This document shows positions 22,279-52,069 of a stretch of 54,877 bases of DNA, in pieces. Source of the DNA: Gemmatimonadota bacterium (GTDB taxonomy: Bacteria; Gemmatimonadota; Gemmatimonadetes; Gemmatimonadales; Gemmatimonadaceae); NCBI GenBank assembly GCA_031372565.1, contig JANMLN010000198.1:1-54877 (forward strand), read 5' to 3'. How positions within the stretch are numbered: the first letter of the stretch is position 1; every line of letters begins with the position of its first letter. Both the position numbers and the translations under genes were made by a program. The notes beneath the pieces were generated by a model. The model was given only the letters and a program-made list of their open reading frames with translations. It did no database searches and was not told where the DNA came from.

Positions 22279-22289
22279 GGCTGATTCTC

Positions 22290-22784
22290 CTATTGGAACA
22301 GCTTGTCGATTTCATCGTCGGCGCCGGCCAGAAGGCCGGTCTGCGCCGGGGCACCGCCCGCCTGCCCGCGCGAGAACACCTGCTCGAACAACCTGCTGAG
22401 ATCTTCCACGACGCCCTTCATCTTGAGCCGCACAAGGCCGAGGGTGGTGCGGTTGTCGAACAGCACGCAGAGGATCACGCGCCGGGCGACGTCCGCGAGG
22501 TACATCGATTCTCTCTCGCCCTGATGGAAGAGCGAGTTGAAGTCGCTCTCGCCGATGAGCTTGGCGAGCTGATCGTTCGCCGAGAAGTCCGCCGCCGTCA
22601 GCGTGGCGAAGGCGGTGGGGTCGAAGGTGGGCTGTTCGCCCACAGTGGCGACCAGCTGCCCGCTCCGATCCACCAAGAGGGCGCAGCGCGCGTTCGACTC
22701 GTAGAGGAACTTCTGGAGCAACTGCGTGATCGCGTGGAAGTCGTCTTCGGTAAACGACCAGCTCGCGCTGCCTACTGGCGGCAT
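22290..22784 (-). CDS. mglB: MglB roadblock/LC7 GTPase-activating protein
   Basis: [47 protein letters not shown] and DDEIDKLF; directly upstream of mglA. Confidence 0.9.
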
Positions 22785-22833
22785 TCCCTGTCCCCGTGGT
22801 TGCGAGTGGTGCGGAGCGCGTGTGCGGCCCGCC

Positions 22834-23424
22834 TCATGCCATGACCCGTCGTGCGGAGAGCGCCTGGGCAATCGTGACCACGTCAGCGTACTCCAAGTCG
22901 CCCCCGACCGGCAACCCGCGGGCAAGCCGCGAGACACTCACCCCCGACGCGGCCAGTTCGCGCTGCAGCCAGACGGCGGTGGCGTCGCCCTCGAGCGACG
23001 GGTTGGTGGCGACAATCACTTCGTGTACCCCGCCCGCCGCCACGCGGTCGAGCAGCGGCTGCACGGCGAGGTCGTCCGGCCCCACGCCGTCGAGCGGCGA
23101 GAGGCGACCGCCCAGCACATGGTATCGACCGCGAAACTCTGCGGAGCGTTCGATGGCGCCGATGTCGGAGGCATCCTCGACCACGCAGAGCAGCGCCGGA
23201 TCACGTCGCGGATCGGCGCAGATGGCGCAGGTGGGCGCTTCGGTGAGGTTCCCGCAGGTGGTACACGGATGCACCCGCTCCGACAGCGTCGACAACGCCC
23301 CGGCAAGCCGCTTGCTCGCCTCGGGCGGCTGCTTGAGCAGATGGTACGTCAGGCGCATCGCCGTCTTGCGGCCGATTCCGGGCAACTTGGCGAGTTCCAG
23401 TGCGAGATCCTCGATGGCCGACAT
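22834..23424 (-). CDS. recR: recombination mediator RecR
   Basis: LPGIGRKTA.RL, C4 zinc finger, Toprim domain and LARGLPVGGDLEYAD. Confidence 0.95.
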   Translation of the reverse strand: MSAIEDLALELAKLPGIGRKTAMRLTYHLLKQPPEASKRLAGALSTLSERVHPCTTCGNLTEAPTCAICADPRRDPALLCVVEDASDIGAIERSAEFRGRYHVLGGRLSPLDGVGPDDLAVQPLLDRVAAGGVHEVIVATNPSLEGDATAVWLQRELAASGVSVSRLARGLPVGGDLEYADVVTIAQALSARRVMA

Positions 23425-27404: not shown

Positions 27405-28100
27405 ATGAAGCGTTTCACTACTGCACTCGCTGCCCTGCTGCTCGCAGCACCCGCCGCGAACGCCCAGGTTCTGAACTTTGAAGGCTTGGCGAATTACGGA
27501 GTTGGCACCACGACCGTCGGCAACTTCTACAACGGCGGCACCAGCGGCGCCGGCTTCTCCGGCACGAACTACGGCATCACGTTCTCTTCGAACGCCCTGA
27601 TGCTGTGCCTCAACACGGCCGGCAACCCGCGCTGCTCCAACACCTCGCGCGGCGGTCTGGGCGACCCGACGTCGCAGCGTGGCGGCCTGTTCTTCCTGTC
27701 CGGCTCGCAGACCCTCATGGAGCGTGTGGGGGGCTTCACCACCGGTTTCTCGTTCTTCTACTCGGCCGTGAACAGCGGCGGCAGCTTCCAGGTGTGGGAT
27801 GGGCTCGGTGGCACGGGCAACGTGCTGGCGTCGTTGTCCCTCGGCACGACCGGTAACGGCGGATCCAACCCCGCATGCGTCAGTTCCAACTTCTGCACGT
27901 TTCAGGCAGCCGGCGTGAGCTTCGCGGGTACGGCCCAGTCGGTCACCTTCGCGGGCGCGGCCAACCAGATCGTGTTCGATGACGTGACCTTCGGCAGCGC
28001 GACGGCGGGTCAAGTCGTGCCGGAGCCGAGCACCGTGGCCCTGATGGCCACCGGTCTCTTCGGCGTCATGGCGGCGGCCCGCCGCCGTCGTCGCGCGTAA
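27405..28100 (+). CDS. PEP-CTERM sorting domain surface protein
   Basis: Signal peptide (ANA-Q); Gly/Ser/Thr/Asn-rich body; C-terminal VPEPST-hydrophobic helix-RRRRRA. Confidence 0.93.
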   Translation: MKRFTTALAALLLAAPAANAQVLNFEGLANYGVGTTTVGNFYNGGTSGAGFSGTNYGITFSSNALMLCLNTAGNPRCSNTSRGGLGDPTSQRGGLFFLSGSQTLMERVGGFTTGFSFFYSAVNSGGSFQVWDGLGGTGNVLASLSLGTTGNGGSNPACVSSNFCTFQAAGVSFAGTAQSVTFAGAANQIVFDDVTFGSATAGQVVPEPSTVALMATGLFGVMAAARRRRRA

Positions 28101-37923: not shown

Positions 37924-39351
37924 TCAGTTCTTGGGCGCGGGGGCGAAGCCCTTGCGTTCCATCCGCCCCCAACCCTCGTCGCCGCGCGCCCACTTCCAGA
38001 ACGCCTGCAGGCGGAAGAAGACCGTCATCTGCCGATAGCCCACGTTCTCGATCACGGCGTAGAACAACAGGCGGGCGAAGTCCCCGGCGCGCCGATACCG
38101 GCGGAAGGTGAGTTCCTCGAGGACCACGGCCCAGACCGACAGCAGAATGCCGTAGCCGATGGCCACCGTGAAGAAGAGCAGCGCGAACTCGTCGTTCACG
38201 CTGCCCGTCGCCACGACGAGCACGGTGAGGATCCAGCCGGCAAGTTCGACGACCGGCGACAACATCTCGCCAATGACGAAGAACGGAAAGGAGATCATCC
38301 CCGTGCTGCCGTACTTCGGATTGAACAGGAGGTCCCGGTGGGACACGAGCGTGGCGATCAGCCCGCGATGCCAGCGCTCGCGCTGGCGGCCCAGCACGCG
38401 CGCGTCCGACGGGACCTCCGTCCACGCCACCGGATCGGGAATGAAGGGCATCGTGGCCTTGATCCCGCGCTCGCTGAGGTACCGGTGCAGGCGCACCACG
38501 AGGTCCATGTCCTCCGTGACGTTCCCGGTGGTGTACCCGCCGATCGCCAGCAGAAAGTCGCGGCGAAACAGACCGAAGGCGCCCGAGATCACGAGATTCC
38601 CGCCCAGCCGGTTCCATCCGAGCCGACCGAACAGGAACGCCCGCAGGTACTCGATGGTCTGGATCCCGACCATCCAGTCCTTCGACACGCGTGCAGTGGT
38701 CACGCGGCCCAACTCGACCGTGCTGCCGTTCACGACGCGAATCGTGCCACCCACCGCCGCCACGTTCTGTCCCAGCAGGAACGGGCGCGCCAGCCGCACG
38801 AGCGCGTCCGGCTCGACGAGGGTATCGGCATCAACGGCGATCACGTACGGATAGCGCGCCGCGTTCATCGCGGCGTTGAGGGCGTCCGCCTTGCCGCCGT
38901 TCGCCTTGTCGACCACGAGCAGCCGGCTGAAGCGGCGCGACCGGTAGTACGCCTTCACCGGCTTCGTCACCACCGCGACGGGAAAGGCCGGCGGCACCTC
39001 GTAGAGGTCATACTCCTCCGTGAGCCGTTCCATGGTGCGGTCCTTCGACCCGTCGTTGACGAGCACCACTTCGTGCCGCGGATACTCGAGCGTCAGGAAC
39101 GACAGCACGCTCGCGCCGATCGTGACCTCCTCGTTGTGGGCCGGCACGAGCAGCGACAGCGGCGGCAAGGCGTCGGCCCCGAGGATGCGCTGCACGTGCT
39201 CATCCTCGGCGAGATGCCAGTGCATCCAGAGCTCGGGAATCGAGAGGATGAGCAGCAGCGCGTAGAACGAGTTGATGCCGAGGAAGTAGATCAGCACGAT
39301 CGCCTCGGACCAGGGGGCGATGGCGGCGAGCACGCTGGACAGCGTCGACAC
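37924..39351 (-). CDS. membrane-embedded processive GT2 polysaccharide synthase (PgaC/IcaA-like)
   Basis: N-terminal TM; VPAHNEE, VNDGSKD, NGGKADALN, DAD, QTIEY, SGAFGLFRR, TEDMD and QRERW; C-terminal TMs; WGRMERKGF end. Confidence 0.9.
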   Translation of the reverse strand: MSTLSSVLAAIAPWSEAIVLIYFLGINSFYALLLILSIPELWMHWHLAEDEHVQRILGADALPPLSLLVPAHNEEVTIGASVLSFLTLEYPRHEVVLVNDGSKDRTMERLTEEYDLYEVPPAFPVAVVTKPVKAYYRSRRFSRLLVVDKANGGKADALNAAMNAARYPYVIAVDADTLVEPDALVRLARPFLLGQNVAAVGGTIRVVNGSTVELGRVTTARVSKDWMVGIQTIEYLRAFLFGRLGWNRLGGNLVISGAFGLFRRDFLLAIGGYTTGNVTEDMDLVVRLHRYLSERGIKATMPFIPDPVAWTEVPSDARVLGRQRERWHRGLIATLVSHRDLLFNPKYGSTGMISFPFFVIGEMLSPVVELAGWILTVLVVATGSVNDEFALLFFTVAIGYGILLSVWAVVLEELTFRRYRRAGDFARLLFYAVIENVGYRQMTVFFRLQAFWKWARGDEGWGRMERKGFAPAPKN

Positions 39352-39353
39352 GA

Positions 39354-40421
39354 TCAGCTCTCCGCGAGTTCGAGGATGCCGCCGTCCGAGAGGCCGGAGA
39401 CCATCGTGGCCATGTCCCGGGCGAACCGGTCGTCGCCCGTGCGCGCCTCGCGGAGTACCCGTCGACCGGGCTCGCCGAGCTGCGCAAGGGCCAGCGCGCC
39501 GCGGAAGCGCACCCACCACGCCGAGTCCGCGAGGCACGGCCGCAGCGCGCCGACGAACGCGGCATCCCCGAGCGAGCCTGCGGTGCGGCAGGCCGCCGCA
39601 CGCACGCGCCAGTCTTCGTCGCGCAGCAACGCGGAGAGCGTGACGAGCACGCGCGGATCGTAGAAATGCCGGAGTGACCGCGCGACCGCGAGGCGCACCT
39701 GCGCATCCTCGTGGCCCGCCAGCGCCGCGGCGGCCGTGATGCACGCGGGGTCGGTGCTCTGCTCCGCGATGGAGATCCAGACCTCGAGCGACCGCGGCGG
39801 CGAACCGGGCACCAGCCGGGCAAGCAAGGCCGGCACGGTGATCGAGTGCGCCCGCAGCACGGCCGTCATCTGGATCTGCCGCACCACGAGCGGGCGAGAT
39901 ACCAACTGGTCGAGCACGTCCTCGATGATCGTGCGGTCGGCGATGCGCTCGATGGCCCCGGTCGCGGCGGTTTGCACGGCGGGATGCCGATCGGAGAGCA
40001 GGCGCCGCAGCAGTTCACGGTCGAGCTCGGTCCCGGCCGCCGTCAGCATGCGCGCCGCAGCGAGCCGGTCCCACCACGCACGATTGCGCGCACGCGCGAG
40101 CATCGCCCGCACCCACGGCTCCCGGCGCAGCAGCGGCACCAGTTCCTGACGCGACGCCGGCGGCACACGGCGCGAGAGCGCCGCCAACGTCTCCTCGAGC
40201 GCCAGTCCGGGCGGGGCCTCGCGCAGCGTCGCGATCACGGCATGGACGTCCGTCTCACCGAGCAGCCAGCGCGTGAAGGCGAGCGCCACGGCCGGACCGC
40301 CCATTTCCTGCGTGCGACCCGCGAGCCGACGCCGCAGGCGATTGACCACGATCAGTGCGACCAGCAGGACGAAGAAGACCGCCTGCACCAGGGCGATCAC
40401 GATGAAGACTTGGGCCTTCAC
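39354..40421 (-). CDS. membrane-anchored HEAT-repeat protein
   Basis: N-terminal TM followed by repeats such as LLSDRHPAVQTAA, LLRDEDWRVRAAA and LADSAWWVRFRGALAL; coupled to both neighbours. Confidence 0.85.
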   Translation of the reverse strand: MKAQVFIVIALVQAVFFVLLVALIVVNRLRRRLAGRTQEMGGPAVALAFTRWLLGETDVHAVIATLREAPPGLALEETLAALSRRVPPASRQELVPLLRREPWVRAMLARARNRAWWDRLAAARMLTAAGTELDRELLRRLLSDRHPAVQTAATGAIERIADRTIIEDVLDQLVSRPLVVRQIQMTAVLRAHSITVPALLARLVPGSPPRSLEVWISIAEQSTDPACITAAAALAGHEDAQVRLAVARSLRHFYDPRVLVTLSALLRDEDWRVRAAACRTAGSLGDAAFVGALRPCLADSAWWVRFRGALALAQLGEPGRRVLREARTGDDRFARDMATMVSGLSDGGILELAES

Positions 40422-42394
40422 GCGCGCATCGCGCCCGTCATCGCCATCCAGTTCGAAAGCTTGGCCATCAGGACCCGCAGGCTGACCGGCTTCACGAGGT
40501 AGTCGATCGCGCCCCCGCGGAGCGCGCGCAACTGCTCGCCTTCCGACGCGTGCGCGGTCGCGAACACCACGGCGAAGACGCCGGGGCGCTCGACACGCAA
40601 CCGCTCGTGCAGCGAGTGACCGTCCAGCCCGGGCAAGTCGACGTCGAGCAGCACGAGCGGTTTGCGTCCCACCCGCGGCCGGAGCGCCCGGAGCGCGTCG
40701 AGCGCCTCGGTCCCCGTCGTGTACGCCCGATGGGTGTAGCCCTGCGTGTCGAGGGCGTAGCGGAGCATGTCGGCGAGCGCCACATCGTCCTCCACGACGA
40801 TCACGTCCGGCGCGAGCCGTGCGTCGTTCGCCGACCACACGTGCACGCGCTGCCCGTCGAGCTCGGCCACGCCGGCAGCGTCCACCGCTGCGCTCAGCAT
40901 CGCATCGGTGCCATCGAGCACGCCCGAGGCGCCCACCACCCCCGCGTACCACGCGGGTGCCCCCGCGGGCGCATCACGGGCACTGGCGTCGAGCAGTGTC
41001 ACGAGCGGCTCGACCGCGCCGGCCGACACCATCGCGAGTGCGGTGTCATCGGCATAGCCGACCAGCAGGCCGGGGGTGCGCGCCAGCACCGCATCGGCCA
41101 CGCGACGCACTTCCGTGTGCCATCCGGCAAGCGCCGTTCCGCCAGGCGCCACGCCGGCCGCTCGCACGATCGCGACCGATCCCCCCGGCGGCCGTGTGCG
41201 CCACCGGGCGATCTCCGCGCCCAGCACGGTCCGGAACGTCGCGGCGAGCGGGAACCCGGTCCCCGGATGACAGCCCTCGTCGAGTCGGCGCAGTCGCTCG
41301 GCGTCCAGGCGTGCCGTGACGCGCGCGCGGAGCTCGCTGCCGACGATGGGCTTGGGCACGAACTCGTCCGCTCCGGCATCGAGCGCGGCCTGACGCATGC
41401 GCGCATCCGCCTCGCTGGAGAACACGATCAGCGGCAGCGACGCGAACGCGTCAACGGCGCGCACCGCCCGGGTGAGCGCGATGCCGTTCGACCGGCCAAG
41501 GTTGACGTCGAGCAGGAGCAACGACGGACGACTCCGCTCCAGCTCGGCGAGCAGCTGGTCGGGGTCGAGGAGCGTGCGCACCTGCATCCCGGCTTCTTCC
41601 ACGATGAGGCGCACCAGCGCGAGCACGTCCGGGTCGTCGTCGCACACGAGGACCGTGGCGCCGTCCCAGGAGGCGCGCGCCGCCGCGCGCGCGACGACAT
41701 CGAACACCGCCGCGGCATCGTCATCGGCATGCAACACCCGCGCACCGGCAATCCGGCTGGCACGCCGCGCGGCCGCGGGGGCTTCGCCGTCGTCGAGGAT
41801 GACGAGCGGCACGCTCGACTGCCCAAGCGCGCGGTGCACCGCCTCGGCCGATCCCACGGACGTGACGACGACGTGCGGCGCGGTGCCTCGCAAGGACGCC
41901 GGGCTCCACATCCCCTCGGCGTGCACGATCACGTCGTAGCCGCGCAGCCGCCCTTCCTCGCGCAGGCGATCCGTGAAGTCCGCACGCAGGTCGACGGCGA
42001 GCAGGGACCGGGACGCCCCCACGGCCCCGGGCTCCGCGAGCGCCGGAGCGGCACTCTCGTCGAAGGCCGACCGTAACGCCGCCACATACCGTGCGAGGAT
42101 CGTGGCGCGCTCGGTGGCTTCGAGGCGCGCATCCCCTGCCCACCGAACGGCGCGCTCCTCCATCACGGCCGACAGGCGGCTCGCTTCCGCGAAGCCGTAG
42201 CTCCCGGCCGTGCCGCGCACGCGATGCAGTTCGCGGCGGAGGTTGTCGACGACCTCGGGCGTGTCCGGTTGTTCCGCGAGTCGTGCGCCAAGCGTCCGGA
42301 ACGCCTCCAGCGTGTTGGAGATGGACGCGCGATAGCGCTGCTGCAGCGCCTCGAGGGCCTGCGCCATGGCGGCATCGCGTGCCGGATCGGTCAT
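40418..42394 (-). CDS. multidomain signalling protein: Hpt - degenerate REC - REC - degenerate GGDEF-like - REC
   Basis: ELHRVRGTAGSYGF (Hpt); VCDDDPD..LLLDVNL..FVPKP; HPGTGFP...GYADDT (eroded DxLTGL/GGDEF); VEDD..LLDVDLPGLDG..DYLVKP. Confidence 0.8.
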   Translation of the reverse strand: MTDPARDAAMAQALEALQQRYRASISNTLEAFRTLGARLAEQPDTPEVVDNLRRELHRVRGTAGSYGFAEASRLSAVMEERAVRWAGDARLEATERATILARYVAALRSAFDESAAPALAEPGAVGASRSLLAVDLRADFTDRLREEGRLRGYDVIVHAEGMWSPASLRGTAPHVVVTSVGSAEAVHRALGQSSVPLVILDDGEAPAAARRASRIAGARVLHADDDAAAVFDVVARAAARASWDGATVLVCDDDPDVLALVRLIVEEAGMQVRTLLDPDQLLAELERSRPSLLLLDVNLGRSNGIALTRAVRAVDAFASLPLIVFSSEADARMRQAALDAGADEFVPKPIVGSELRARVTARLDAERLRRLDEGCHPGTGFPLAATFRTVLGAEIARWRTRPPGGSVAIVRAAGVAPGGTALAGWHTEVRRVADAVLARTPGLLVGYADDTALAMVSAGAVEPLVTLLDASARDAPAGAPAWYAGVVGASGVLDGTDAMLSAAVDAAGVAELDGQRVHVWSANDARLAPDVIVVEDDVALADMLRYALDTQGYTHRAYTTGTEALDALRALRPRVGRKPLVLLDVDLPGLDGHSLHERLRVERPGVFAVVFATAHASEGEQLRALRGGAIDYLVKPVSLRVLMAKLSNWMAMTGAMRA

Positions 42395-42532
42395 CGATTG
42401 CGCGGGAGATACTGCACGCTGCAAGCTCCCCAGTGTGTGCAGCGTCGGCAAGGGAGCAGTTCCTTCGGGGGTCGCGCCTCGTTATCGTGGCTGCATCGTG
42501 GCTCAGCGACATCCGCCAAGGGAGCAAGCGAC

Positions 42533-42895
42533 ATGCGCGTCCTGTGCGCCGACGACGAAGAGGACATCCGCACGATTCTCGCGCTCGCGCTCGCCCTCGA
42601 CCCCGAGATCTCGGCGGAGTTCGTCGAGAACGGTGAAGCGGCGCTCGCGCGCGCGCACGAGGGATGGGACGCCTTCCTGCTCGATGGCATGATGCCGGGG
42701 GTGGATGGATACGAAGCCTGCCGCCGACTGAAGGCGGATCCGGTCACGGCCGCCGTGCCGGTCGTTTTCCTCACCGCCAAGACATCGCGCGATGATATCG
42801 CACACGCGCTCGCGCTGGGAGCGACCGGATCGCTCGCGAAGCCGTTCGATCCGATGACGCTGGCCGGAGAGTTGCGACGGCTGCTGGGGCGTTGA
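42533..42895 (+). CDS. single-domain response regulator
   Basis: VLCADDEEDIR, LLDGMMPGVDG, VVFLTAK and KPFDP; GGAG RBS. Confidence 0.9.
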   Translation: MRVLCADDEEDIRTILALALALDPEISAEFVENGEAALARAHEGWDAFLLDGMMPGVDGYEACRRLKADPVTAAVPVVFLTAKTSRDDIAHALALGATGSLAKPFDPMTLAGELRRLLGR

Positions 42896-42903
42896 CGCCG
42901 TCG

Positions 42904-45573
42904 ATGATCGGCGCGCGCGTGGTCGTCCTCGGCTGCGCGATCCGGCGGGTCGTGGCGTTGGCCGGCGGCCTTGCCGCGCTCCTGCTCGTGCGGCCGGTGA
43001 GTGCGTGGGCGCAGCGCGCGGCTGGCTGCGTGACCACGGCGGACGCCGACTCGGCCTGGGCCGCCTTTCGTGCCCAGCGACTCGACGAGGCGCGACGACG
43101 CTTCGCGACCGCCACCGCCCGCTGTCCGACCGATGCCGGTGCGCGCGTGGGCCTCGCCTACGTCGCCTTGCGCGCCGGAGAGTTGAGGACCGCACGCGCG
43201 GGCTTCGATGCGGCGCTCCGACTGGCCCCGGAGAACTACGACGCCCTCACCGGTCGCGGCATGCTCGCCTGGCGCGAGGGCGACCTCGCCGCCGTGCGCG
43301 CCGCCTTCCAGTCCGCGCTCCGCGTGGTGCCCGGAGACTCGCTCTCCTTGGCGTATCTGGCTCGGCTCCCCGCGATGGTCGATTCGACGCCATTGCCTGT
43401 GCGCCGGCGGCCCTCCACCACCATCGTGGCCGCCCGCACCGCATCCCGCCGGTTCGAGGTGCCCGATGGTCGCAGTGGCTGGCGGCCGTTCACGCTCAAG
43501 GCGGTGAACCTCGGCGCCGCGCTCCCCGGCAAGTATCCCTCGGAGTTTCCGCCCGACGACTCGACGTACGAGCGATGGATCGCGACCATCGCGGCGATGA
43601 AGGCCAACGCGGTGCGCGTGTACACCGTGCATCCGCCGTACTTCTACCGTGCGCTGGCGCGGTGGAATGCGGCGCATCCCGGCGACCCGCTCTGGCTGGT
43701 CCATGGCGTTTGGACCGAGCCCCCACCGGGCACGCTCGAGGACGGCTATGACGATCCGGCATGGCACCGCGCGTTCATGGCGGAGATGAACGACGTCGTG
43801 AACCTCGTGCACGGACGCGCGATCATTCCGCCGCGTCCCGGTCACGCAGGCGGTCGCTATATCCACGACGTGTCGCGCTGGACCGTCGCGTGGATTCTCG
43901 GACGCGAGTGGGAGCCGTACTCGGTGGTGGCGTACAACGCTCGGCGCCCCGGCGTGGCGGACTGGAGCGGGCGCTTCATTCGCGTGAGCCGAGGCCACGC
44001 CCTCGAGCGATGGATGGCGCAGGCTGCCGACTCCACGATCGGGTACGAGATGGCGCGCTTCAACGCACAGCGGCCCATCGCCTACACCAACTGGCCCACG
44101 CTCGACCCGCTCACGCATCCCTCAGAAGCGACGCAGGCCGAAGAGCGCGCGCTCCTGGCCATGCGCGGCGAGGAGCTGCCCGAGCCGAGCAAGGAGTTCG
44201 ACAACGACGCCGTCGGTCTCGATGCGCGCCGCATGACTGGCACGGACGCCTTTCCCGCGGGCACCTTCGCATCGTATCATGCCTACCCATACTACCCCGA
44301 CTTCATCCAGCTCGACACGGCCTACGCCGCCAGTCGATCGAGCGAGGGCCCCAGCTCGTACATGGGCTATCTCCGCGCTCTGGTCGCCCATCACGGCGAC
44401 ATGCCCGTGGTGATTGCCGAGTACGGTGTACCGTCGTCGCGCGGCGTGGCGCACCTGGAGCCGCAGGGATGGCACCATGGCGGACACGACGAAGCGGCGC
44501 AGGCGCGCATCAACGCGCGCCTCACCCGCGAGATCATCGAGGCCGGCTGCGCGGGACTCGCGATCTTTGCCTTGATCGACGAGTGGTTCAAGTACAACTG
44601 GGCGGTCATCGACTTCGAACGGCCCGGTGATCGCAATCGGCTCTGGTACAACGCCCTCGACGCCGAGCAGAACTACGGGATCATCGCCATGCGACCGGGG
44701 GTGCGGGACTCGGTCGTGCAACTGGACGGGCGCGGCGACGACTGGTCCACGGAACCTTGGCTGTCGCGCTCGGCGCTGGACACGAACCGCTCGCCGCTTG
44801 CCCTCAAGGCGCTCCGCGTGCAGCAGGACGAGGGCTATCTCTACCTTCGGCTGGATGTCGGCGCGATCGACTGGACGCGCGGGCGCTACCTGATCGGCAT
44901 CGACACGTACCGGCGCGATCTCGGCGATGTCGTCTTGCCGGTCACGCGCGAACGCGTGAGCACCGGGCTCGAGTTCGTCCTCGACCTGCGCGGGGCCGAC
45001 AGTGCGCAGCTGTTGGTCGACGCGCCGTACAACCCGCGGCATCCGGCGCCGGTGAAGGGCGCGCTGCGGCCAACCTCGATTCACGTGTATCAGCGGCCGT
45101 TCGAGACGCGCGCCAACGACGCCGGCCGATGGGAGGAGCTCTTCGTGCCCTCCAACCGAAGGCGCATCGGACGCGATGGCACCGTCTATCCCGAGCGAGG
45201 CACCAATTGGAGCACGCTCCGATTCGGCACGAGCGCGTCCAGCACCCTTGCGGACTGGTACGCCGACTCCACCACGGGGATCATCGAGGTCCGGCTGCCG
45301 TGGGGGCTGCTGAACGTGATCGATCCATCGGCGCGCACGGTGTTGTTCGGCATGGATGCCGACGGCAGCCCCGCCGCGATGCCAACCGACGGGTTCCGCT
45401 TTCTGGTGCGCAGCTATGACCCGCGCACACCGACGCTGCCAGGCGACGCCCTGCCGCTGCGCGGTACGCCGCTTGCCACGTGGAGTTGGCGCCCCTGGGA
45501 GACGCCGCGATGGTATGCGGAACGCAAGCCGCAGTTCGACGCACTGCGCGCGGTGTTCGAGTCGCTGCCGTAG
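42904..45573 (+). CDS. secreted TPR + TIM-barrel glycoside hydrolase-like protein with C-terminal beta-sandwich
   Basis: Signal peptide (AWA-Q); TPRs; KAVNLG, ANAVRVYT, ILGREWEP (acid/base position), SYHAYPYYPDF, VIAEYG (nucleophile position) and DEWFK. Confidence 0.75.
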   Translation: MIGARVVVLGCAIRRVVALAGGLAALLLVRPVSAWAQRAAGCVTTADADSAWAAFRAQRLDEARRRFATATARCPTDAGARVGLAYVALRAGELRTARAGFDAALRLAPENYDALTGRGMLAWREGDLAAVRAAFQSALRVVPGDSLSLAYLARLPAMVDSTPLPVRRRPSTTIVAARTASRRFEVPDGRSGWRPFTLKAVNLGAALPGKYPSEFPPDDSTYERWIATIAAMKANAVRVYTVHPPYFYRALARWNAAHPGDPLWLVHGVWTEPPPGTLEDGYDDPAWHRAFMAEMNDVVNLVHGRAIIPPRPGHAGGRYIHDVSRWTVAWILGREWEPYSVVAYNARRPGVADWSGRFIRVSRGHALERWMAQAADSTIGYEMARFNAQRPIAYTNWPTLDPLTHPSEATQAEERALLAMRGEELPEPSKEFDNDAVGLDARRMTGTDAFPAGTFASYHAYPYYPDFIQLDTAYAASRSSEGPSSYMGYLRALVAHHGDMPVVIAEYGVPSSRGVAHLEPQGWHHGGHDEAAQARINARLTREIIEAGCAGLAIFALIDEWFKYNWAVIDFERPGDRNRLWYNALDAEQNYGIIAMRPGVRDSVVQLDGRGDDWSTEPWLSRSALDTNRSPLALKALRVQQDEGYLYLRLDVGAIDWTRGRYLIGIDTYRRDLGDVVLPVTRERVSTGLEFVLDLRGADSAQLLVDAPYNPRHPAPVKGALRPTSIHVYQRPFETRANDAGRWEELFVPSNRRRIGRDGTVYPERGTNWSTLRFGTSASSTLADWYADSTTGIIEVRLPWGLLNVIDPSARTVLFGMDADGSPAAMPTDGFRFLVRSYDPRTPTLPGDALPLRGTPLATWSWRPWETPRWYAERKPQFDALRAVFESLP

Positions 45574-45582
45574 GTCGCGACG

Positions 45583-45616
45583 ACTACAACACCACTACAA
45601 CACCACTAGAACACCA
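45583..45616. repeat. 11-bp tandem repeat, three copies
   Basis: ACTACAACACC ACTACAACACC ACTAGAACACC; the third copy contains the stop codon of the minus-strand gene. Confidence 0.8.
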
Positions 45617-47420
45617 GCCGACCGCGCGCCGTGAGGCCGCCCGCCCGGTACTCGGAGGTCGCCGCGAATGGCGACGCCACATTGGCGATCCACAGCACAG
45701 CCGACCACTCGGTCCCCGGAATCGGCCGGTACAGCACGCCCAACTGCGCGCGCTGCGCCCCCTTGTTGGTGGAGGGATTCGACCCGATGCGAATCGTCTG
45801 CGTCCCCACGCCGACGTCCGCCAACACGTTCCAGCCGATGTCCTTGGGCAACTCGAAGTGCGCGGCCGCCTCGACCAGCGTGAAGCGCTGGGGCGCGAAA
45901 TAGCCGTCACCGCCCGCGGTCGTATCGTATCCGAAGGTGCGCGCCACCACACCGAGCCACGAGCCACGCGTCACCGCGTAGCGCAGCGCGCCGCTCATGG
46001 CCAGGCGCGCATTCGGCGTGGCGCCATTGCCGATCCTGGCCCAGCTCGCGCCACCGCCAACGGTGAACCGCCCGGGCAGCGTGATGCTGATGTCGCCATC
46101 GAGGCCGTCGGACCGGATCCGCCGGACAATCAGCACCGCGGTCTCGTCGAACGGCCCCCCCGACGCGCTGATGCCCGCGACCACGCGCGGCGCGACGGGT
46201 CCCGACGCGCGCACGGAGTAGGAGAGCAGCGTACCGACACTCCGGCTCGCTGGGACGCTACCGGGAGGACCCCCGATCGGCAGCAGCCCGACCGTGGGAT
46301 CGTCCCCGCTGAGCAGCGTGACGCCTCCCTCGCCGCGCAGCGTCCACGCGGTACCCGCCGGCGTCCACGAGGATGACAGTCGCACTGCGGTACTCGTTCC
46401 CCGGAACGCGCTGAACTCCGCCGTCCGGAACTGCGCGCTGAGCGTTGCGCGCCCCTGCCACGGGGGCGCCAGCGATCCGCTCACCGTCGTCGTGAGCATC
46501 CGGTTCTGGTCCGAGTCGTTGCCGTACGCGACGCTGACGTCGCCCGCAGGGGCAAGTTCCGCCCGGACCCACGCGCGTTGCGAGATCGCATCCGGGTACC
46601 CGGGGCGCACCACCAACGCCTGCGCGAGCGCGCGATCCGCGTCGCGGGCACGGCCCTGCCACCGTTCCACCTGTGCAAGCCCCGTCCAGCCTTCCGGATC
46701 GGTCGGGAAACGTACCGTCACATCGGCCCACTGCGCGCGGGCCGCGTCGAGGTCCCCGCGCCACGCCGTGACCCGCGCGATCCCCTTGGCGGCCTCGGCC
46801 GGCGCACGCGATGCCAGCAACCCGTACTCCGCCGCCGCATCGTCGAAACGCCCGTCCCACGACAAGGTGCGCGCGAGCCCGGCGCGCGCGTCATCATCCT
46901 CCGGCGAACGCACCAGCCAGTCGCGATAGCGCGCGGCTGCCGCGCTCAGGTCGCCCGCCCAAGCCAGTACCTGCGCGCGGAAGAGCGCGATTTCGCGCTC
47001 GAGGGGCATCGCCTGCGAGAGCGAATCGAGCACCCCGAGCGCCGGCGCATAGCGCGAGGCCCACGCGAGCGTGCGGGCACGCGCGAGCGGTCCGCCGTAA
47101 TCGCCCGGCTCCATCCGCTCATAGCGAGCAAACAGCGCCAGCGCACTGTCGGTGCGACTCGCCCACGCCAGCGTCGTCGCGACGCGAAAGACGGCGCGCG
47201 ACGAGGCGAGGGAATCCTGCATCAGCGCGGCGCGATACAGCACCGCCGCACTGTCCGGGCGGCCGGCCCCCCACAACGAGTCGGCGCGCACCAGAAGCGG
47301 CGTGACGGCCTGTCCACCAGCCGGCCTCGCCGCCAGCGCCAGCAGCACGCCCGCAGCCACGCGCACGCACGCGCCCCCGAGGGCCCGTCCGCGCGCGATG
47401 TCCTGCGGGCGCGCGTCCAC
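45606..47420 (-). CDS. TPR-repeat protein with probable C-terminal outer-membrane beta-barrel (PgaA/YaiO/BcsC-like exporter)
   Basis: Signal peptide; repeated LAR.L.W.G TPR units; alternating beta-strand C-terminal half with YFAPQRF; terminal Phe (GRLVF). Start uncertain. Confidence 0.72.
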   Translation of the reverse strand: MDARPQDIARGRALGGACVRVAAGVLLALAARPAGGQAVTPLLVRADSLWGAGRPDSAAVLYRAALMQDSLASSRAVFRVATTLAWASRTDSALALFARYERMEPGDYGGPLARARTLAWASRYAPALGVLDSLSQAMPLEREIALFRAQVLAWAGDLSAAAARYRDWLVRSPEDDDARAGLARTLSWDGRFDDAAAEYGLLASRAPAEAAKGIARVTAWRGDLDAARAQWADVTVRFPTDPEGWTGLAQVERWQGRARDADRALAQALVVRPGYPDAISQRAWVRAELAPAGDVSVAYGNDSDQNRMLTTTVSGSLAPPWQGRATLSAQFRTAEFSAFRGTSTAVRLSSSWTPAGTAWTLRGEGGVTLLSGDDPTVGLLPIGGPPGSVPASRSVGTLLSYSVRASGPVAPRVVAGISASGGPFDETAVLIVRRIRSDGLDGDISITLPGRFTVGGGASWARIGNGATPNARLAMSGALRYAVTRGSWLGVVARTFGYDTTAGGDGYFAPQRFTLVEAAAHFELPKDIGWNVLADVGVGTQTIRIGSNPSTNKGAQRAQLGVLYRPIPGTEWSAVLWIANVASPFAATSEYRAGGLTARGRLVF

Positions 47421-47422: not shown

Positions 47423-47986
47423 CTACTTCGCCGACCAGTCCACCGAGAGCATCACCGTGCCCCACGCGATGGTCATGACCCCCTTGGCCGCACCCTCGCC
47501 GGGCACCAGCGCGATCTGCAGGCTCTCGACCGCATCGGTCAGCGTCCGCGCCTTCAGATCCACCTTGACCAGGTCGGCCGAGGCGTCGTACTCGGTGCCC
47601 CACTCACCGGTCTTCTTGTTCACGATGAGCTTCCAGCCCGACTTCGAGGGCATGGTGAAGAGCGTGTACTTCCCCTTCGGGATCGTGGCGCCGCCCAGCA
47701 CGAGATCGACGTCGGTCGAGAACTCCGTGGCGGCGTTGGCCCCGAGACGCCAGACCTCCTCCAGCTTCACCACGTCGTGCATCACCTTGCGGCCGCGCGC
47801 GTGCGGCTGGCCATAATCGACACGGATCTTGAGCGGCGCAGGCGCGGGCTGCCCTTGCACGCGCGGCAGCGCGAGGGCGACTTCCGCCGTCGCGCGGGTG
47901 CTGGGGTTCGCGCGCAGCTGGGCTTCGAGCGGCAGGACAACGAGGGCGCTCAAGGCGAGCGCGGCGGAGAGGCGGAGTCGGGTCAT
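47423..47986 (-). CDS. DUF2911 domain secreted protein
   Basis: Signal peptide, VDYGQP..RGR, VWRLGANAAT, GKYTLFT.P and WGTEYD. Confidence 0.85.
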   Translation of the reverse strand: MTRLRLSAALALSALVVLPLEAQLRANPSTRATAEVALALPRVQGQPAPAPLKIRVDYGQPHARGRKVMHDVVKLEEVWRLGANAATEFSTDVDLVLGGATIPKGKYTLFTMPSKSGWKLIVNKKTGEWGTEYDASADLVKVDLKARTLTDAVESLQIALVPGEGAAKGVMTIAWGTVMLSVDWSAK

Positions 47987-48065
47987 GGTGGGTTCGGTGG
48001 TGGAAGTATCGGCCGCAGCGGGGGCCAGCCGTCCTGCTGATGAGACGAGCGAACGCGGGCGCGCG

Positions 48066-48629
48066 TCAGCCCGCGATGTGATCGGCATGGCGCGCCTTGG
48101 CGTGGTGCGGGAGCTTCTTCTCGGGCTTCCGTGGCGCGAGGATGGTGCCTCGACAGCTGGTCGCGCCGCATCGGCAGGCATAGCGGCGCTCGTCCTCCTC
48201 GGTCTCGGTGCCATCGCGTTCGTACCCGTAGTCGTACGCGAGTTCCTCTCCCTTGGTGATGTCGCGACGCGCCTCGACGAAGATCCGGCGTCCCTCGATC
48301 ACGGCTTCGCAGTTCGGATCGCAGGCGTGATTGATGTAGCGGGCGTCGTTGCCACCCACGGCACCGTCGACGACCGTGCGGGACGTGAGCGTGAAGAGGA
48401 ACGTGTGATGGCGCCGCATCGCCACGTCGTCATAGCGCCGATCGGCCTCCGCGTGGGAGATGTGCTCGCCCGTGTACTCCATGATGCGCGTCCCCTTCGG
48501 GATCGCCTGGCGCGCAAAGACGCCGCGCCCCTGGATGGCCGAGCGACGAACGACGTGCAGCAGAGCGGGTGCGGCGGTGGTCGCGCGCGCGGCTGCGGCG
48601 CTCGACGTGCGGGGACGAGTGGGTGCCAT
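48066..48629 (-). CDS. SET-domain protein-lysine methyltransferase with post-SET domain
   Basis: S.IQGRGVFA, ARYINHACDPNC, GEELAYDY and CRCGATSCRG. Confidence 0.92.
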   Translation of the reverse strand: MAPTRPRTSSAAAARATTAAPALLHVVRRSAIQGRGVFARQAIPKGTRIMEYTGEHISHAEADRRYDDVAMRRHHTFLFTLTSRTVVDGAVGGNDARYINHACDPNCEAVIEGRRIFVEARRDITKGEELAYDYGYERDGTETEEDERRYACRCGATSCRGTILAPRKPEKKLPHHAKARHADHIAG

Positions 48630-48640: not shown

Positions 48641-51600
48641 CTAAGCGGAGGATGCCGAACCTTCGGGTGCCCGAAGCAGGCGTGCCGCGAGCGTGACCAT
48701 CAGCGCCGCCATGACCACGCCGCCGACCGCCGACCATCGGTCGCCCGGATGGGCCGCCAGCGCGAGCCGGTCCGCCGCGTTGAGCCCCGCCGCGACCGCC
48801 GCGCCAATCACCCAGGCCCCAACGCCGTCACGCCCCCAACGCGCGATCGCGACCCACCACACGACGCTCGCGACCAGGACGGCGCCCGACACCACCGGCG
48901 CCCGCCACGGCTCCTCCCCGCCCCACGCGGTGAGCAACAGCCAGGTGCCGCCCGTCGCGACAGCAAGGGCGGCCGTGCGAACCCACGCGCGGCGCGCGAG
49001 GCTCGCGACCAGCAGCGCGGGGAGCGCCACCGCCAAGGGCATGACCATCACCGCGCGCCACACGTCGAGTGCCCCCGAGCCAGACGGCCAGAGCGCCCCG
49101 AGCGCGGTCTCGGGCCCGGTCGGCATTCCCCGCAGGGCGCCCGCCCAGGCCGCCAGCCGCGCGGTCACGAATGCCAACGCCCCGAGTGCGGCTCCCGATC
49201 GCCAACTCTCGCGTGACGCCACAACGGCCGGCACGCCGACGCGCCGCCGGAGCGCGTCGGTCATCAGCCAGAGCGAGGCCGGGAGCACCACGGTGACGAG
49301 TTGCTCGACGAGCCCTAGGGTCACCGTCAACACGTGTGAGCGCCACGGCGTCGCCGAGTCCCAGCTCGCCAGCGCGCGCGGCAGCGCGTTCACCCCCGAA
49401 GCGGCCATCAGCAGCAGCGCCGCGATCCCGACCACGATCAGCGCTCGACGACTGAGCGGACGATCCTGCAGTCGCGGCGGCCGCCGACCCGCGACGATCG
49501 CGATCACGATGCCGGCGAGCAGTCCGAGCAGGATCGCGACCATGCCGATCGTCCCGCGACGCTCCATCCGGGCCGTGTCGGCACGCGACCACTGCTCGAG
49601 CAGTCGCACCGAGCGCCAGAGCGCCACCGCGTCGTTGCCGGCGACGCGTACCCGCACACGTGCCGACGCACCACCCGGAATCGCCACCGCACGATCATCG
49701 AACACGAACACGAGGTCGCGGCGGTGCGGTCGCTGCACCTCCTCGACGCACTGCTCGCGCAGCGACACCGTGTCGATGCCGCTCGCCGCCGCCGCACGGC
49801 GCGCGATCAGGCGTGCCTCGTCGCGCGCAAGGTCGGGCCGCGCCGCGTCCTCCGGCAGCACGTGCTGCCAGTCGTGCGGCGTTCCGTCTGCAAGCAGCTG
49901 CATCCGCCACCCCTCGGCCTTCTCGCCCGCCGTGCCCTCGCGGCGGTCGAAGCGCACACGCCAGGCCGAGAGCGGCCGATAACTCCGGGCGAGTGCCTCC
50001 ACGAGGTCCGGACGTTCGATGTGCGCAAGGTAGCGGGCACTCTCGGCGTCATCGACGGCCACCGCCTCGGCCATCGGCGTGAGTCCATCGAGCAGCGCGC
50101 CGCGCGCACGCAGCGCGGAATCGGCGATCGCGATGGCACGCGCGCGATCGATGCTGAAGCGCGGCTCCGCCAGGCGCACACCGCGCGGCACCAGCAGCAT
50201 GGCCACCGCCACCGCCATCAGCCACGGCCGCTCATCCCACCTGCGGCGTACCGGCGCGATGCGATCCACGACCGGTGGCATCGCCGGCACGGGCGCCTGC
50301 CCGTCGGCTGTCGGCGCTTCCAGTCCGCCGTCGGACTCAACGTCCAACGGCGGCTGCCACGCGCCGAAGGTGAGCGCGTCCCATGCCGGTGCGGCGCCGC
50401 GTGGCCGCCAGCGCGCCCAGAGCACGATCAACGCCGGTGTGCACATGACCAGCGCCACCACCGCGAGCGACACACGATACGCCGGTGCATCGCCCTGCAT
50501 GGCGAACAGCCCGAACAGGAAGAGATCGAAGGTGAAGTGGCCGATGACTGTCGGCACGAGACCGACGCGCAGGAAGATGAGCGCCCACAGCACCGCCTCG
50601 GCGAACAGCTCGACGCCGCGCGAGTACGCAGGCCACGAGGCATAGCTGGCGTGCGCGAAACCGAACACGATCGCCGTCACCACGACCGTCACCGCCATCG
50701 CGGCGCGATGCCACGAACGACCACGCGTCAGCAGCGCGACCGCGGACAGCGGCACGGCGCGGAACAACACCTCCTCGAGGACCCCGGCCTGCGCGGCGTT
50801 CGCGATGGCCGAGAGAAACGGAAGCGGCGACGCAATCGCGTTCGGATCGTCGAGCAGCGCACTCGGCACCCACCAGCCGAGCAGGTGCCGCGCGGCATAG
50901 TAGAAGGTGGCGACATATCCGAGGCCCACCGCACACACCGCGTATCCCGCGAAGACCTGGCGCGCCACTCGCGGATGCGCGCGGGCGCGCCACACCGACC
51001 ACCAGTCGAGGTGCGCAGGAAAGGCCGCGCGGGTCAGCGTCTCGCCGCCGCCCAGCACCACCACGAGGAACGCGCCGAACAGGAGCGGCACGAGCAGGGC
51101 GGCCAGCGCCCGCTGCACGAGAAACGCGCCGGGTGGCGAAGCGGTGGCATAGTCGTACCAACTGCCCGGGATATCGTTGGCCATCGACGCCGCCTGCAGC
51201 CCCGCGAGCACCGCCGCCGCGGCAATGGCGGCGCGCCACCGCACGCGCCCGTCACGCTGCGCGCGATACAGGGCCAGGAGCGCGATCAGGCCGTATACGG
51301 GAAAGCCAAATGCTGCGACTTGTGCCAGCAGCTCGTTGCTCGAGCGCATCTCCGCGTACCGACGCACGAACGTTTCCGGAATGACCACGTATTCGCGCGC
51401 GCCCGACGGTACGTCGCCGGACAGGTCGACGTCCAGTCGGATCGGCGCGCCGGCGATGCGGCGATCAGCACGCTCGTACGTGAAGTGCCAGTCGACGCGG
51501 GCGCTGGCCGGCACCACTTCACGCGATGCGCTCACGAGCGGCCACGGTACATCGCCGTGGCTCATCCACCCTGTCACCACGTCACGCGCGCGCGACTCGG

Positions 51601-52069
51601 CGGCGGCAGAGTCGAGCGCCGGCCGGCGATCGGTCTCGGAGAGTTCCCGCGAGAAGCCGGTGACCCGCCCATCGGGGGCGAAACGGACACGCGTCTCGTG
51701 GACGTCACCCGGCGTGAACGCGCGCACCGTCCAGCGGAATAGCGCGACATCGCGGCCAGCCGCGACGGAATCGAGCGTCGCCTTCCCGGCGCCTGTGCTC
51801 AGCTCGAGAAACAGTTGCAGCGACCCTTCTTCCGCGAAGCGCACCGCGGTGCGCGCCTCAGGGAACGGCAGGTCGTGTTGCCGCGCGAAGTCACGGGCCT
51901 TGGTGAGCGCGGAAGCGGCCGTCAGCGTCTGCTTGAAGCGCACCTGCGGGACGGCCTGCTCGAAGAGCAGGAAGGCGGCGAGCGCACCGAGCAGCCCCGC
52001 CGCCGCCACGCCGAGTGTTGCAGCCCCGCCACGCCATCTGATTTGTGATGTATCGCCGCGGTCTGCCAT
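48641..52069 (-). CDS. large CPBP (CAAX/Abi) family intramembrane protease with duplicated extracytoplasmic domains
   Basis: EEVLFR, FGFAH and GHFTFD motifs; many TM helices; two similar soluble domains of about 200 aa. Confidence 0.8.
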   Translation of the reverse strand: MADRGDTSQIRWRGGAATLGVAAAGLLGALAAFLLFEQAVPQVRFKQTLTAASALTKARDFARQHDLPFPEARTAVRFAEEGSLQLFLELSTGAGKATLDSVAAGRDVALFRWTVRAFTPGDVHETRVRFAPDGRVTGFSRELSETDRRPALDSAAAESRARDVVTGWMSHGDVPWPLVSASREVVPASARVDWHFTYERADRRIAGAPIRLDVDLSGDVPSGAREYVVIPETFVRRYAEMRSSNELLAQVAAFGFPVYGLIALLALYRAQRDGRVRWRAAIAAAAVLAGLQAASMANDIPGSWYDYATASPPGAFLVQRALAALLVPLLFGAFLVVVLGGGETLTRAAFPAHLDWWSVWRARAHPRVARQVFAGYAVCAVGLGYVATFYYAARHLLGWWVPSALLDDPNAIASPLPFLSAIANAAQAGVLEEVLFRAVPLSAVALLTRGRSWHRAAMAVTVVVTAIVFGFAHASYASWPAYSRGVELFAEAVLWALIFLRVGLVPTVIGHFTFDLFLFGLFAMQGDAPAYRVSLAVVALVMCTPALIVLWARWRPRGAAPAWDALTFGAWQPPLDVESDGGLEAPTADGQAPVPAMPPVVDRIAPVRRRWDERPWLMAVAVAMLLVPRGVRLAEPRFSIDRARAIAIADSALRARGALLDGLTPMAEAVAVDDAESARYLAHIERPDLVEALARSYRPLSAWRVRFDRREGTAGEKAEGWRMQLLADGTPHDWQHVLPEDAARPDLARDEARLIARRAAAASGIDTVSLREQCVEEVQRPHRRDLVFVFDDRAVAIPGGASARVRVRVAGNDAVALWRSVRLLEQWSRADTARMERRGTIGMVAILLGLLAGIVIAIVAGRRPPRLQDRPLSRRALIVVGIAALLLMAASGVNALPRALASWDSATPWRSHVLTVTLGLVEQLVTVVLPASLWLMTDALRRRVGVPAVVASRESWRSGAALGALAFVTARLAAWAGALRGMPTGPETALGALWPSGSGALDVWRAVMVMPLAVALPALLVASLARRAWVRTAALAVATGGTWLLLTAWGGEEPWRAPVVSGAVLVASVVWWVAIARWGRDGVGAWVIGAAVAAGLNAADRLALAAHPGDRWSAVGGVVMAALMVTLAARLLRAPEGSASSA

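Follow-up and report, generated by a model that had tools for sequence, protein, structure and literature searches.

To our knowledge, all well-studied machines for synthase-dependent exopolysaccharides (EPSs), i.e., those for cellulose, poly-beta-1,6-N-acetylglucosamine (PNAG), Pel, alginate, Nfr, and listerial Pss, are switched on by cyclic di-GMP (c-di-GMP) at the synthase complex; PgaD, the PilZ domain of BcsA, and PelD are the c-di-GMP receptors in known systems. Here, we analyzed six adjacent genes on a 54,877-nucleotide contig of a Gemmatimonadota bacterium of the family Gemmatimonadaceae (contig JANMLN010000198.1 of assembly GCA_031372565.1; the whole contig is referred to as the window). 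They encode a processive family 2 glycosyltransferase (GT2), a membrane-anchored HEAT-repeat protein, a protein with Hpt and receiver (REC) domains, a single-domain REC protein, a secreted TPR protein with a predicted glycoside hydrolase (GH) domain, and a TPR protein with a predicted outer membrane porin domain. This gene content, proposed in an earlier note on the same DNA, was verified with small refinements by open reading frame (ORF) listing, translation, and Pfam and NCBIfam scans. We favor, with moderate confidence, the interpretation that the locus is a synthase-dependent EPS secretion system of the general Pga/Bcs/Pel design with a different inner-membrane control module. The evidence that carries this interpretation is a gene order, REC, HEAT, GT2, that recurs across phyla, together with intact catalytic and phospho-acceptor residues and the predicted folds of the hydrolase and the porin.

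The locus shares with the Pga/Ica system an inner-membrane processive GT2 that is nearest PgaC/IcaA, a TPR protein with a 16-stranded porin that superposes on Protein Data Bank (PDB) entry 4y25, and a gene for a membrane partner beside the synthase gene. It differs from Pga/Ica in that its GT2 and porin score far below the equivalog cutoffs, in that its partner is a 355-residue HEAT solenoid whereas PgaD is a c-di-GMP co-receptor with two transmembrane (TM) segments, in that its periplasmic enzyme is predicted to be a TPR-linked clan GH-A hydrolase, and in that its control parts are Hpt and REC domains. With BcsABZC, it shares the layout of synthase, periplasmic endo-hydrolase, and TPR-porin, and Foldseek matched the full-length porin best to BcsC; however, the synthase carries no PilZ domain, BcsB was not matched using Pfam, and the hydrolase is predicted to have a (beta/alpha)8 GH-A fold instead of the GH8 fold of BcsZ. 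With Pel, it shares a PelB-like TPR-porin and a variable hydrolase/deacetylase that recalls the bifunctional PelA, and PelE, an inner-membrane alpha-solenoid scaffold, may be a precedent for a solenoid partner; in contrast, the polymerase is a GT2 whereas PelF is a GT4, and Pfam revealed no PelD-type GAF/GGDEF receptor among the six proteins. More generally, Pfam and NCBIfam scans of the six proteins matched no PilZ, BcsB, PgaD, or deacetylase family, including a PgaB-type deacetylase, and detected none of the c-di-GMP-binding families PilZ, GGDEF with an I-site, and MshEN. The equivalog scores, the missing families, and the GT2 profile agree with the earlier view that none of Pga, Bcs, Pel, and Alg is a one-to-one counterpart of the locus.

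Two other clusters were considered as possible characterized counterparts of the locus and were compared with it by description only, based on the parts of the cited papers that deal with them. Bacillus subtilis YdaJKLMN is described there as a synthase-dependent system for an EPS of unknown structure, with a GT2, uncharacterized large partners, and c-di-GMP control through YdaK (PMC13274460, PMC5422440); it resembles the locus in the GT2 and the large partners and differs from it in control. Xanthomonas xagABCD is described as a GT2-centered biofilm EPS cluster distinct from Pga, and in iron oxidizers a BcsB-like gene adjoins xagBCD-like genes, with no xagA-like gene found there (PMC3609779, PMC4643136, PMC3826837); these descriptions, as far as the excerpts go, mention no HEAT or REC components. 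A full-text literature search found nothing linking a HEAT-repeat protein, or the outer membrane barrel YaiO that occurs in related operons (see below), to a polysaccharide synthase, although most subscription journals lie outside this search and a prior description is possible. Titles and abstract openings of the YaiO papers covered (25 of 65) had no EPS topic and mostly treated yaiO as an Escherichia coli PCR marker gene. The export design is familiar; for the control module formed by REC and HEAT and for the hydrolase family, these searches uncovered no description.

Using a five-sequence HEAT alignment to scan species-representative genomes, and tblastn to identify neighbors, we retrieved 65 loci, which by record title belong to Gemmatimonadota (40), Acidobacteriota (11), Pseudomonadota (13), and "Cyanobacteria bacterium UBA7694" (1). 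A GT2 gene lies within 500 nt downstream of the HEAT gene in 63 of these loci, that is, in all 63 with room downstream, while the remaining two end at a contig edge. A same-strand REC gene lies within 2.3 kb upstream of the HEAT gene in 61 of the 65 loci (61 of the 63 with room) and within 400 nt in 48. The stop and start codons of the trio overlap or abut in many relatives, as they do in the window; HEAT and GT2 genes are both complete in 43 loci. The conserved core is REC-HEAT-GT2, in which HEAT-GT2 is the tightest and most widely conserved link and REC the next. The suggestion that the genes co-occur across phyla holds for these three in fixed order (63/65 and 61/65) and is not borne out for the hydrolase (10/65) and the window-type barrel (16/65). 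The counts overstate independence and are not unbiased, as the loci were found through HEAT itself and come mostly from related uncultured genomes, and they cannot tell how often this GT2 subfamily occurs without HEAT. When 41 related genomes were searched with the HEAT protein, 10 had near-full-length matches (at least 340 of 360 residues), and all further matches covered repeats only; HEAT, GT2, and REC genes were adjacent in all seven close-relative loci that were fetched. Among 301 genomes sampled evenly across the phylum, 92 had a match to the HEAT profile at E <=1e-30, many of these matches being HEAT-repeat proteins of ~1,200 residues, and at E <=1e-60 the profile matched 42 places in 41 genomes (a count that takes in G203, flagged as unpublished); the distribution is patchy.

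In six Pseudomonadota loci, Pfam assignments gave two orders, i.e., REC - YaiO barrel - HEAT - GT2 (L078, L081, and L084) and REC - TPR protein of 395 to 458 residues - HEAT - GT2 (L071, L072, and L075). These operons, which occur in Mesorhizobium ciceri pMESCI01, Rheinheimera marina, Idiomarina, and Brevundimonas, are annotated and uncharacterized. They resemble the window in gene order, in a HEAT protein of the same length with an N-terminal TM segment (19 to 25% identity), in the GT2 (38 to 43% identity), and in having Hpt or kinase genes nearby. They differ in that the outer membrane component is encoded inside the operon and is of the YaiO type, which is not detectably homologous to the window barrel, in that no TPR-hydrolase was seen, and in that the relay parts are separate genes whereas the window has one 658-residue fusion. 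The pMESCI01 locus (L085, NC_014918.1, 382807-397628) encodes an ATP-binding protein that we counted as a kinase, two response regulators, a YaiO-family barrel of 580 residues, HEAT, and GT2, with a convergent Hpt gene. Because a gene for an outer membrane protein lies inside the Pseudomonadota operons, these operons tie the trio to export across the outer membrane.

The GT2 matched three GT2 families in Pfam with E values of 3.4e-24 to 1.5e-15 (including Glyco_tranf_2_3, 3.4e-24, and Glycos_transf_2, 1.9e-20) as well as Chitin_synth_2 (1.2e-9) and, weakly, Glyco_transf_21 (2.1e-9). Among 35 aligned orthologues, D100, the DxD residues D174 and D176, the ED residues E280 and D281, and Q323, R324, R326, and W327 of the QRxRW motif were invariant in 35/35 sequences. 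Hydrophobic segments at residues ~3-41, 357-375, and 392-410 flank the catalytic domain. The QxxRW motif and TM segments expected of the processive GT2 in the synthase-dependent EPS class are present, a combination that marks processive synthases embedded in the membrane. The best curated family was the NCBIfam family PgaC_IcaA (TIGR03937; E = 6.6e-38), whose best stretch of alignment covers profile positions 98 to 329 of 407 and whose score of 130.7 bits is far below the cutoff of 422.3; the CelA/BcsA family scored minimally (36.9 bits versus a cutoff of 699.1). Against PDB sequences, the GT2 profile gave weak matches to chondroitin synthase (5.2e-17 over 65 positions), BcsA (2.3e-11), and hyaluronan synthase (2.1e-8), the last spanning the longest stretch (profile positions 27 to 336). 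The PgaC-, chitin synthase-, and hyaluronan synthase-like affinities are compatible with an N-acetylhexosamine (HexNAc) polymer and do not establish it. The HexNAc polymer considered plausible in the earlier note thus lacks confirmation, given the PgaC_IcaA score and a hydrolase that is nearer to beta-glucanase and beta-glucuronidase families than to known PNAG hydrolases.

The HEAT protein matched HEAT_2 (2.5e-20, Pfam) and has a single N-terminal TM segment (residues 7-25) followed by an Arg-rich stretch and then the repeats. Based on the positive-inside rule, the TM segment and the Arg run suggest a cytoplasmic location for the solenoid. Solenoids of the HEAT type are generic surfaces for protein binding. 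The adjacency of HEAT and GT2, the upstream REC, and the recurring Hpt and hybrid kinase genes suggest to us that the HEAT protein is a synthase partner and that the REC is the last acceptor in a relay gating the synthase; from gene order, we propose that the HEAT protein could act as a membrane-tethered cytoplasmic adaptor or co-subunit of the synthase. Searching 1.84 billion representatives with the HEAT profile gave 9,587 matches at E <=1e-30, mostly giant HEAT-repeat proteins, so that no family size can be derived from this number; single-stretch proteins of ~350 to 370 residues made up 31 of the best 150 of these matches. Among the long proteins, those of ~1170-1330 residues matched the profile from its first residues (E values of 1e-34 to 1e-40); they occur in genomes of family f2 (e.g., G073:C3:679948-680949) and as P0198, P0209, and P0230, and in three of them from the representative library Pfam identified only HEAT repeats. 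Proteins of ~1,210 residues that match the HEAT N terminus were considered as HEAT-GT2 fusions and rejected because HEAT repeats are all that they contain, so that no Rosetta-stone fusion emerged. One genome of the phylum sample (G146) has two full-length HEAT orthologues (C268:1869-2921 and C29:55501-56553, E of ~1e-105 each).

The Hpt/REC protein matched Hpt (1.7e-6) and, in two stretches, Response_reg (8.6e-44) in Pfam. The residues of a phosphorelay, namely, the Hpt histidine (H57) and the acceptor aspartate and lysine of both receivers (D296 and K348 in REC1; D584 and K635 in REC2), are invariant in 11/11 long-form orthologues. This protein had been described as Hpt/REC/GGDEF-like/REC; the Hpt and the two REC domains stand, the GGDEF label finds weak support, and a degenerate receiver between Hpt and REC1, whose profile matches the FrzS pseudo-receiver (E = 1.2e-4), had been missed. 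The ~150-residue domain between the RECs matched GGDEF_2 in 1 of the 11 orthologues (E = 0.0012) and had no such match in the window's own protein, and a profile search of this domain against the PDB gave nothing relevant. The single REC (42533-42895) matched Response_reg (1.8e-22) and is present at 47 to 87% identity in most Gemmatimonadaceae loci. It had been called divergent, which is correct for its direction of transcription and not for its sequence, as the translation has the canonical acidic pocket, Thr, and Lys. The upstream REC protein varies in form: it is a long fusion in some Gemmatimonadaceae and a short Hpt-plus-REC protein in others, and in the loci of Acidobacteriota tblastn matched no part of it other than the C-terminal REC; the Acidobacteriota protein of L062, the only one of these run through Pfam, has 222 residues and a C-terminal REC.

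Histidine kinase and Hpt genes beside the trio in relatives support the proposed association with a phosphorelay. At the divergent position in the Gemmatimonadaceae locus L031 (6561-8981, minus strand), an open frame of 806 residues encodes a GAF-PAS-HisKA-HATPase-REC hybrid kinase that has a stretch matching the window's single REC at its N-terminal end; by its domains, this protein may represent the relay's missing kinase. A CHASE3-PAS-HisKA-HATPase-REC kinase and a MASE1-CHASE-PAS kinase are encoded beside the trio in L072 and L078, respectively. In the host genome (201 contigs, 95.85% complete; the window is contig C194), a search with the L031 kinase matched 20 kinases, none of which is clearly its orthologue.

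The hydrolase has an N-terminal hydrophobic segment, and its only Pfam matches were TPR families; phmmer against PDB sequences likewise gave TPR matches only. Residues 165-893 were modeled using AlphaFold2 (AF2) with a 40-sequence alignment (predicted local distance difference test score [pLDDT], 89.4; predicted template modeling score [pTM], 0.90). In this model, Foldseek and re-alignment assigned the first ~430 residues (full-length, ~165-595) to a (beta/alpha)8 barrel of clan GH-A. The top structural match was a GH157 enzyme (9g4n_C; Z score, 32.1; root mean square deviation [rmsd], 2.5 A; 312 residues; 15% identity) solved with laminari-oligosaccharides, an identity that says nothing about specificity; GH2 beta-glucuronidases (Z of ~26), GH5, GH158, and GH1 also matched. 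In retaining GH-A enzymes, the acid/base and nucleophile glutamates lie after strand beta4 and on strand beta7. In fragment numbering, the model places E175 and E177 directly after the strand 167-172 and E346 on the strand 342-347, and all three are invariant in 40/40 sequences. Because this placement agrees with the acid/base and nucleophile positions, the protein fits a predicted retaining clan GH-A enzyme, in agreement with the secreted TPR-glycoside hydrolase proposed earlier, and a retaining fold of this clan suggests that the glycan is beta-linked. The family has at least 1,818 relatives at E <=1e-5; the best 120 of these match no Pfam family outside TPR and are nameless or labeled "hypothetical protein," "tetratricopeptide (TPR) repeat protein," or "Tfp pilus assembly protein PilF." For residues 165-893, the closest clusters in the ESM Atlas are unnamed Bacillota proteins of 638 to 739 residues (score, 0.98), one of which is auto-named "Family 2 glycosyl transferase"; as a lead only, these clusters may include relatives of partners in Bacillus EPS operons such as ydaJKLMN.

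The porin protein matched TPR families in Pfam and ends in Phe. Its AF2 model, based on 14 sequences (pLDDT, 89.8), consists of 15 TPR helices followed by 16 strands, as in the outer membrane porins of the PgaA/PelB/BcsC fold. It superposed best on 4y25 (Z, 27.4; rmsd, 2.2 A; 274 aligned residues of the 290-residue chain), the entry titled "bacterial polysaccharide outer membrane secretin," which we take to be the PgaA porin domain, and on PelB in PelBC (9h80_M; Z, 27.4), followed by BcsC (6tzk; Z, 26.6); other barrels had Z scores of 17.8 or lower. These matches bear out, at the level of a predicted model, the proposal that 45606-47420 folds as a barrel. Foldseek gave BcsC (9b8a; E = 9.4e-12) as the best full-length match of the TPR-porin. 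By sequence, the top NCBIfam match was PGA_TPR_OMP (TIGR03939; 1e-10), which covers the TPR part only and scores 40.5 bits against a cutoff of 366.65. BCSC_C had no match at E <=1 in the window porin and matched 2 of 14 relatives (best E, 1.2e-4). YaiO (PF19413) had no match at E <=1 in the window porin and is not one of the 25 families listed, out of 39, for the 14 relatives.

Hydrolase or barrel genes lie directly beside the trio in varied arrangements in Gemmatimonadota (L027, L032, L037, L038, L052, L059, and L069), and the slot between REC and porin is empty in L021 to L024. In a relative of the same genus (G003), in which the GT2 is 89% identical, the hydrolase gene is replaced by a minus-strand gene (L013:13958-15790; same region as L020) for a secreted protein with a Glyco_hydro_42M-like domain (1.5e-7) and a match, below the cutoff, to polysaccharide deacetylases of carbohydrate esterase family 4 (CE4; 0.0011) with NodB-like His/Asp motifs. 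Members of one genus thus differ in their periplasmic modifying enzyme, and the deacetylase-like replacement in a sister species is a hint that the sugars may be acetylated. With the relative's CE4-like protein as the query, no counterpart was found in the 95.85% complete host assembly.

In the interpretation that we favor, the inner-membrane GT2 would polymerize and translocate a glycan, probably beta-linked, and the single-pass HEAT protein, translationally coupled just before the synthase, would act as its co-subunit or adaptor. The upstream REC would be the end point of a His-Asp-His-Asp relay from hybrid kinase to Hpt to REC, and the phosphorylated REC would act on the HEAT-GT2 pair, switching polymerization on or off. 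The REC/HEAT module would thereby replace the c-di-GMP receptors of known systems. In the periplasm, the TPR-tethered, retaining clan GH-A hydrolase could trim or release the polymer, which the TPR-containing, 16-stranded porin would carry across the outer membrane. A stronger version, which we put forward tentatively and with clearly less confidence, is that REC-HEAT-GT2 is a widespread, unnamed EPS family in Gemmatimonadota, Acidobacteriota, and Alpha-, Beta-, and Gammaproteobacteria, in which docking of the phosphorylated REC on membrane-tethered, synthase-bound HEAT gates polymerization post-translationally and so does, without c-di-GMP, what PgaD, PilZ, and PelD do in other systems; the polymer, too, may be new. 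If true, a REC and a HEAT solenoid would give processive glycan synthases a second type of gate, one based on phosphorylation. The module is present in Gemmatimonadota and Acidobacteriota, which are abundant and little-studied soil phyla, and also in culturable Pseudomonadota (the M. ciceri plasmid, Rheinheimera, and Idiomarina), so that it is genetically tractable now. The analysis also flags a large unannotated clan GH-A hydrolase family for biochemistry and YaiO as probably a polysaccharide porin.

Several observations weigh against the favored interpretation. Besides the dependence of the locus counts on the HEAT query, the TPR-hydrolase and the window-type barrel were found in only 10 and 16 of the 65 loci, respectively, although many loci are cut by contig ends, which lowers both counts. 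The four annotated Acidobacteriota loci (L042, L047, L049, and L062) have no porin or hydrolase gene in the stretch examined; the Acidobacteriota core may work without a dedicated porin, or it may use one whose gene lies away from the locus. The window's porin and hydrolase genes lie outside the synthase operon, and the porin gene trails a DUF2911 gene by 2 nt. No histidine kinase is encoded within the 54.9-kb window, and the best match to the L031 kinase in the host genome covers the PAS-kinase core only (48% identity). Homology of the window barrel to YaiO was not detectable; hhalign aligned only the TPR parts or nothing. The locus counts and the deacetylase-like swap in the same genus leave the earlier assumption that all six genes form one obligatory system unsupported. 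The low counts, the Acidobacteriota loci, the separate transcription units, the porin gene abutting the DUF2911 gene, and the weak Glyco_transf_21 match would also be expected if REC-HEAT-GT2 were a self-contained inner-membrane module for a periplasmic, surface-bound, or lipid-linked glycan, with the hydrolase and porin as partly coincidental neighbors. We consider this unlikely because hydrolase and barrel genes adjoin the trio in several Gemmatimonadota arrangements, Pseudomonadota place an outer membrane barrel gene between REC and HEAT, the closest folds of the window barrel are specifically EPS porins, and the QRxRW motif and C-terminal TM segments of the GT2 fit a polymer-translocating synthase. 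It is very improbable that the HEAT protein is instead a membrane-tethered modulator of the response regulator (a phosphatase or kinase scaffold or a sequestering anti-adaptor) and that the REC acts on the GT2 directly. The proximity of REC and HEAT in 48/65 loci and the general binding capacity of HEAT solenoids would suit such a role; however, the Pseudomonadota barrel gene parts REC from HEAT while HEAT and GT2 stay adjacent and overlapping, and HEAT-GT2 adjacency (63/63) is the tightest link.

Two alternatives concern the polymer. In the first, the locus is a divergent Pga/Ica-type PNAG system with the GT2 as PgaC orthologue, the barrel as PgaA orthologue, and HEAT/REC as accessory parts. 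This agrees with PgaC_IcaA (6.6e-38) and PGA_TPR_OMP (1e-10, TPR part only) as the top NCBIfam matches, with 4y25 as the joint best structural match of the barrel, and with the CE4-like gene in the hydrolase slot of the same-genus relative. Both equivalog scores are, however, far below their cutoffs (130.7 versus 422.3 and 40.5 versus 366.65), PgaB-type deacetylase and PgaD are lacking in the window, and no counterpart of the CE4-like protein of the relative turned up in the host genome (95.85% complete). Moreover, known PNAG hydrolases belong to GH153 and GH20, whereas the hydrolase here resembles GH157, GH2, and GH5 with a two-Glu retaining site, and we regard a PNAG system as rather improbable. 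Still less probable, in our judgment, is a system for a beta-glucan (cellulose-, curdlan-, or mixed-linkage-like), i.e., a Bcs variant that lost PilZ and BcsB. BcsC as the best full-length Foldseek match of the porin, the BCSC_C matches of 2 of the 14 barrel relatives, the laminari-oligosaccharide-bound GH157 as best fold match of the hydrolase (Z, 32.1), and the match of the GT2 profile to BcsA all point in that direction. Against this stand the minimal CelA/BcsA score (36.9 bits), the failure to find PilZ or BcsB, the equally weak match of the GT2 profile to hyaluronan synthase over the longest span, and the 15% identity to GH157, which is uninformative on specificity.

The six genes form three transcription units, i.e., Hpt/REC-HEAT-GT2 on the minus strand, the divergent REC-hydrolase pair on the plus strand, and the convergent porin gene on the minus strand (Table 1). 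The tight coupling of the first three genes was confirmed: read on the minus strand, the GTG start of HEAT overlaps the TGA stop of the Hpt/REC gene (GTGA), and 2 nt separate the HEAT stop from the GTG start of GT2. The Hpt/REC gene has an ATG at 42394 in an ORF open from a TTG at 42451; the hydrolase TTG at 42892 overlaps the REC stop, and an ATG is also available at 42904. A consensus scan of the sequence, which has a G+C content of ~70%, identified no sigma-70-like sites, including in the divergent intergenic region (42395..42532), and a terminator scan was not informative (4 sites versus 2.8 expected), one site lying just past the GT2 stop (37915-37897).

Table 1. Coordinates of the genes and the intergenic region of the locus in the window
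Feature	Position	Strand	Basis
Processive GT2 synthase, 475 aa, TM at both ends	37924..39351	-	Pfam, NCBIfam, alignment, hydrophobicity
Single-pass TM HEAT-repeat protein, 355 aa	39354..40421	-	HEAT_2, TM segment, gene order
Hpt / pseudo-receiver / REC / unknown domain / REC protein, 658 aa	40418..42394	-	Pfam, profile, alignment
Divergent intergenic region, presumed promoter region	42395..42532	.	Gene orientation only
Single-domain response regulator (REC), 120 aa	42533..42895	+	Response_reg
Secreted TPR + predicted clan GH-A (beta/alpha)8 hydrolase + C-terminal beta-sandwich region, 893 aa	42892..45573	+	Pfam, AF2 model
TPR + predicted 16-stranded outer membrane porin, 604 aa, C-terminal Phe	45606..47420	-	Pfam, AF2 model

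The porin start lies 2 nt past the stop of the DUF2911 gene (47423-48214, minus strand), which encodes a secreted protein. Upstream of the DUF2911 gene, 48641-52069 (minus strand) encodes a polytopic protein of 1,142 residues with an Rce1/CAAX-protease-like domain, and the order of the CAAX-like, DUF2911, and porin genes is kept in the same-genus loci L013/L020 and L021; in L039, the DUF2911 gene adjoins the divergent REC gene. The remainder of the window contains mostly housekeeping genes and a gene for one LytTR-type response regulator. We also noted a YdjC-like gene adjoining a small GT2 gene (1003-2641, minus strand), a protein of 941 residues with a TPR match (16751-19576, plus strand), and a small Arf/Ras-like GTPase gene with an adjoining Roadblock/LC7 gene, which resemble an MglA/MglB pair (21601-22937, minus strand). 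Finally, a PEP-CTERM-tagged protein encoded at 27405-28100 (plus strand) hints at an exosortase system elsewhere in the genome.

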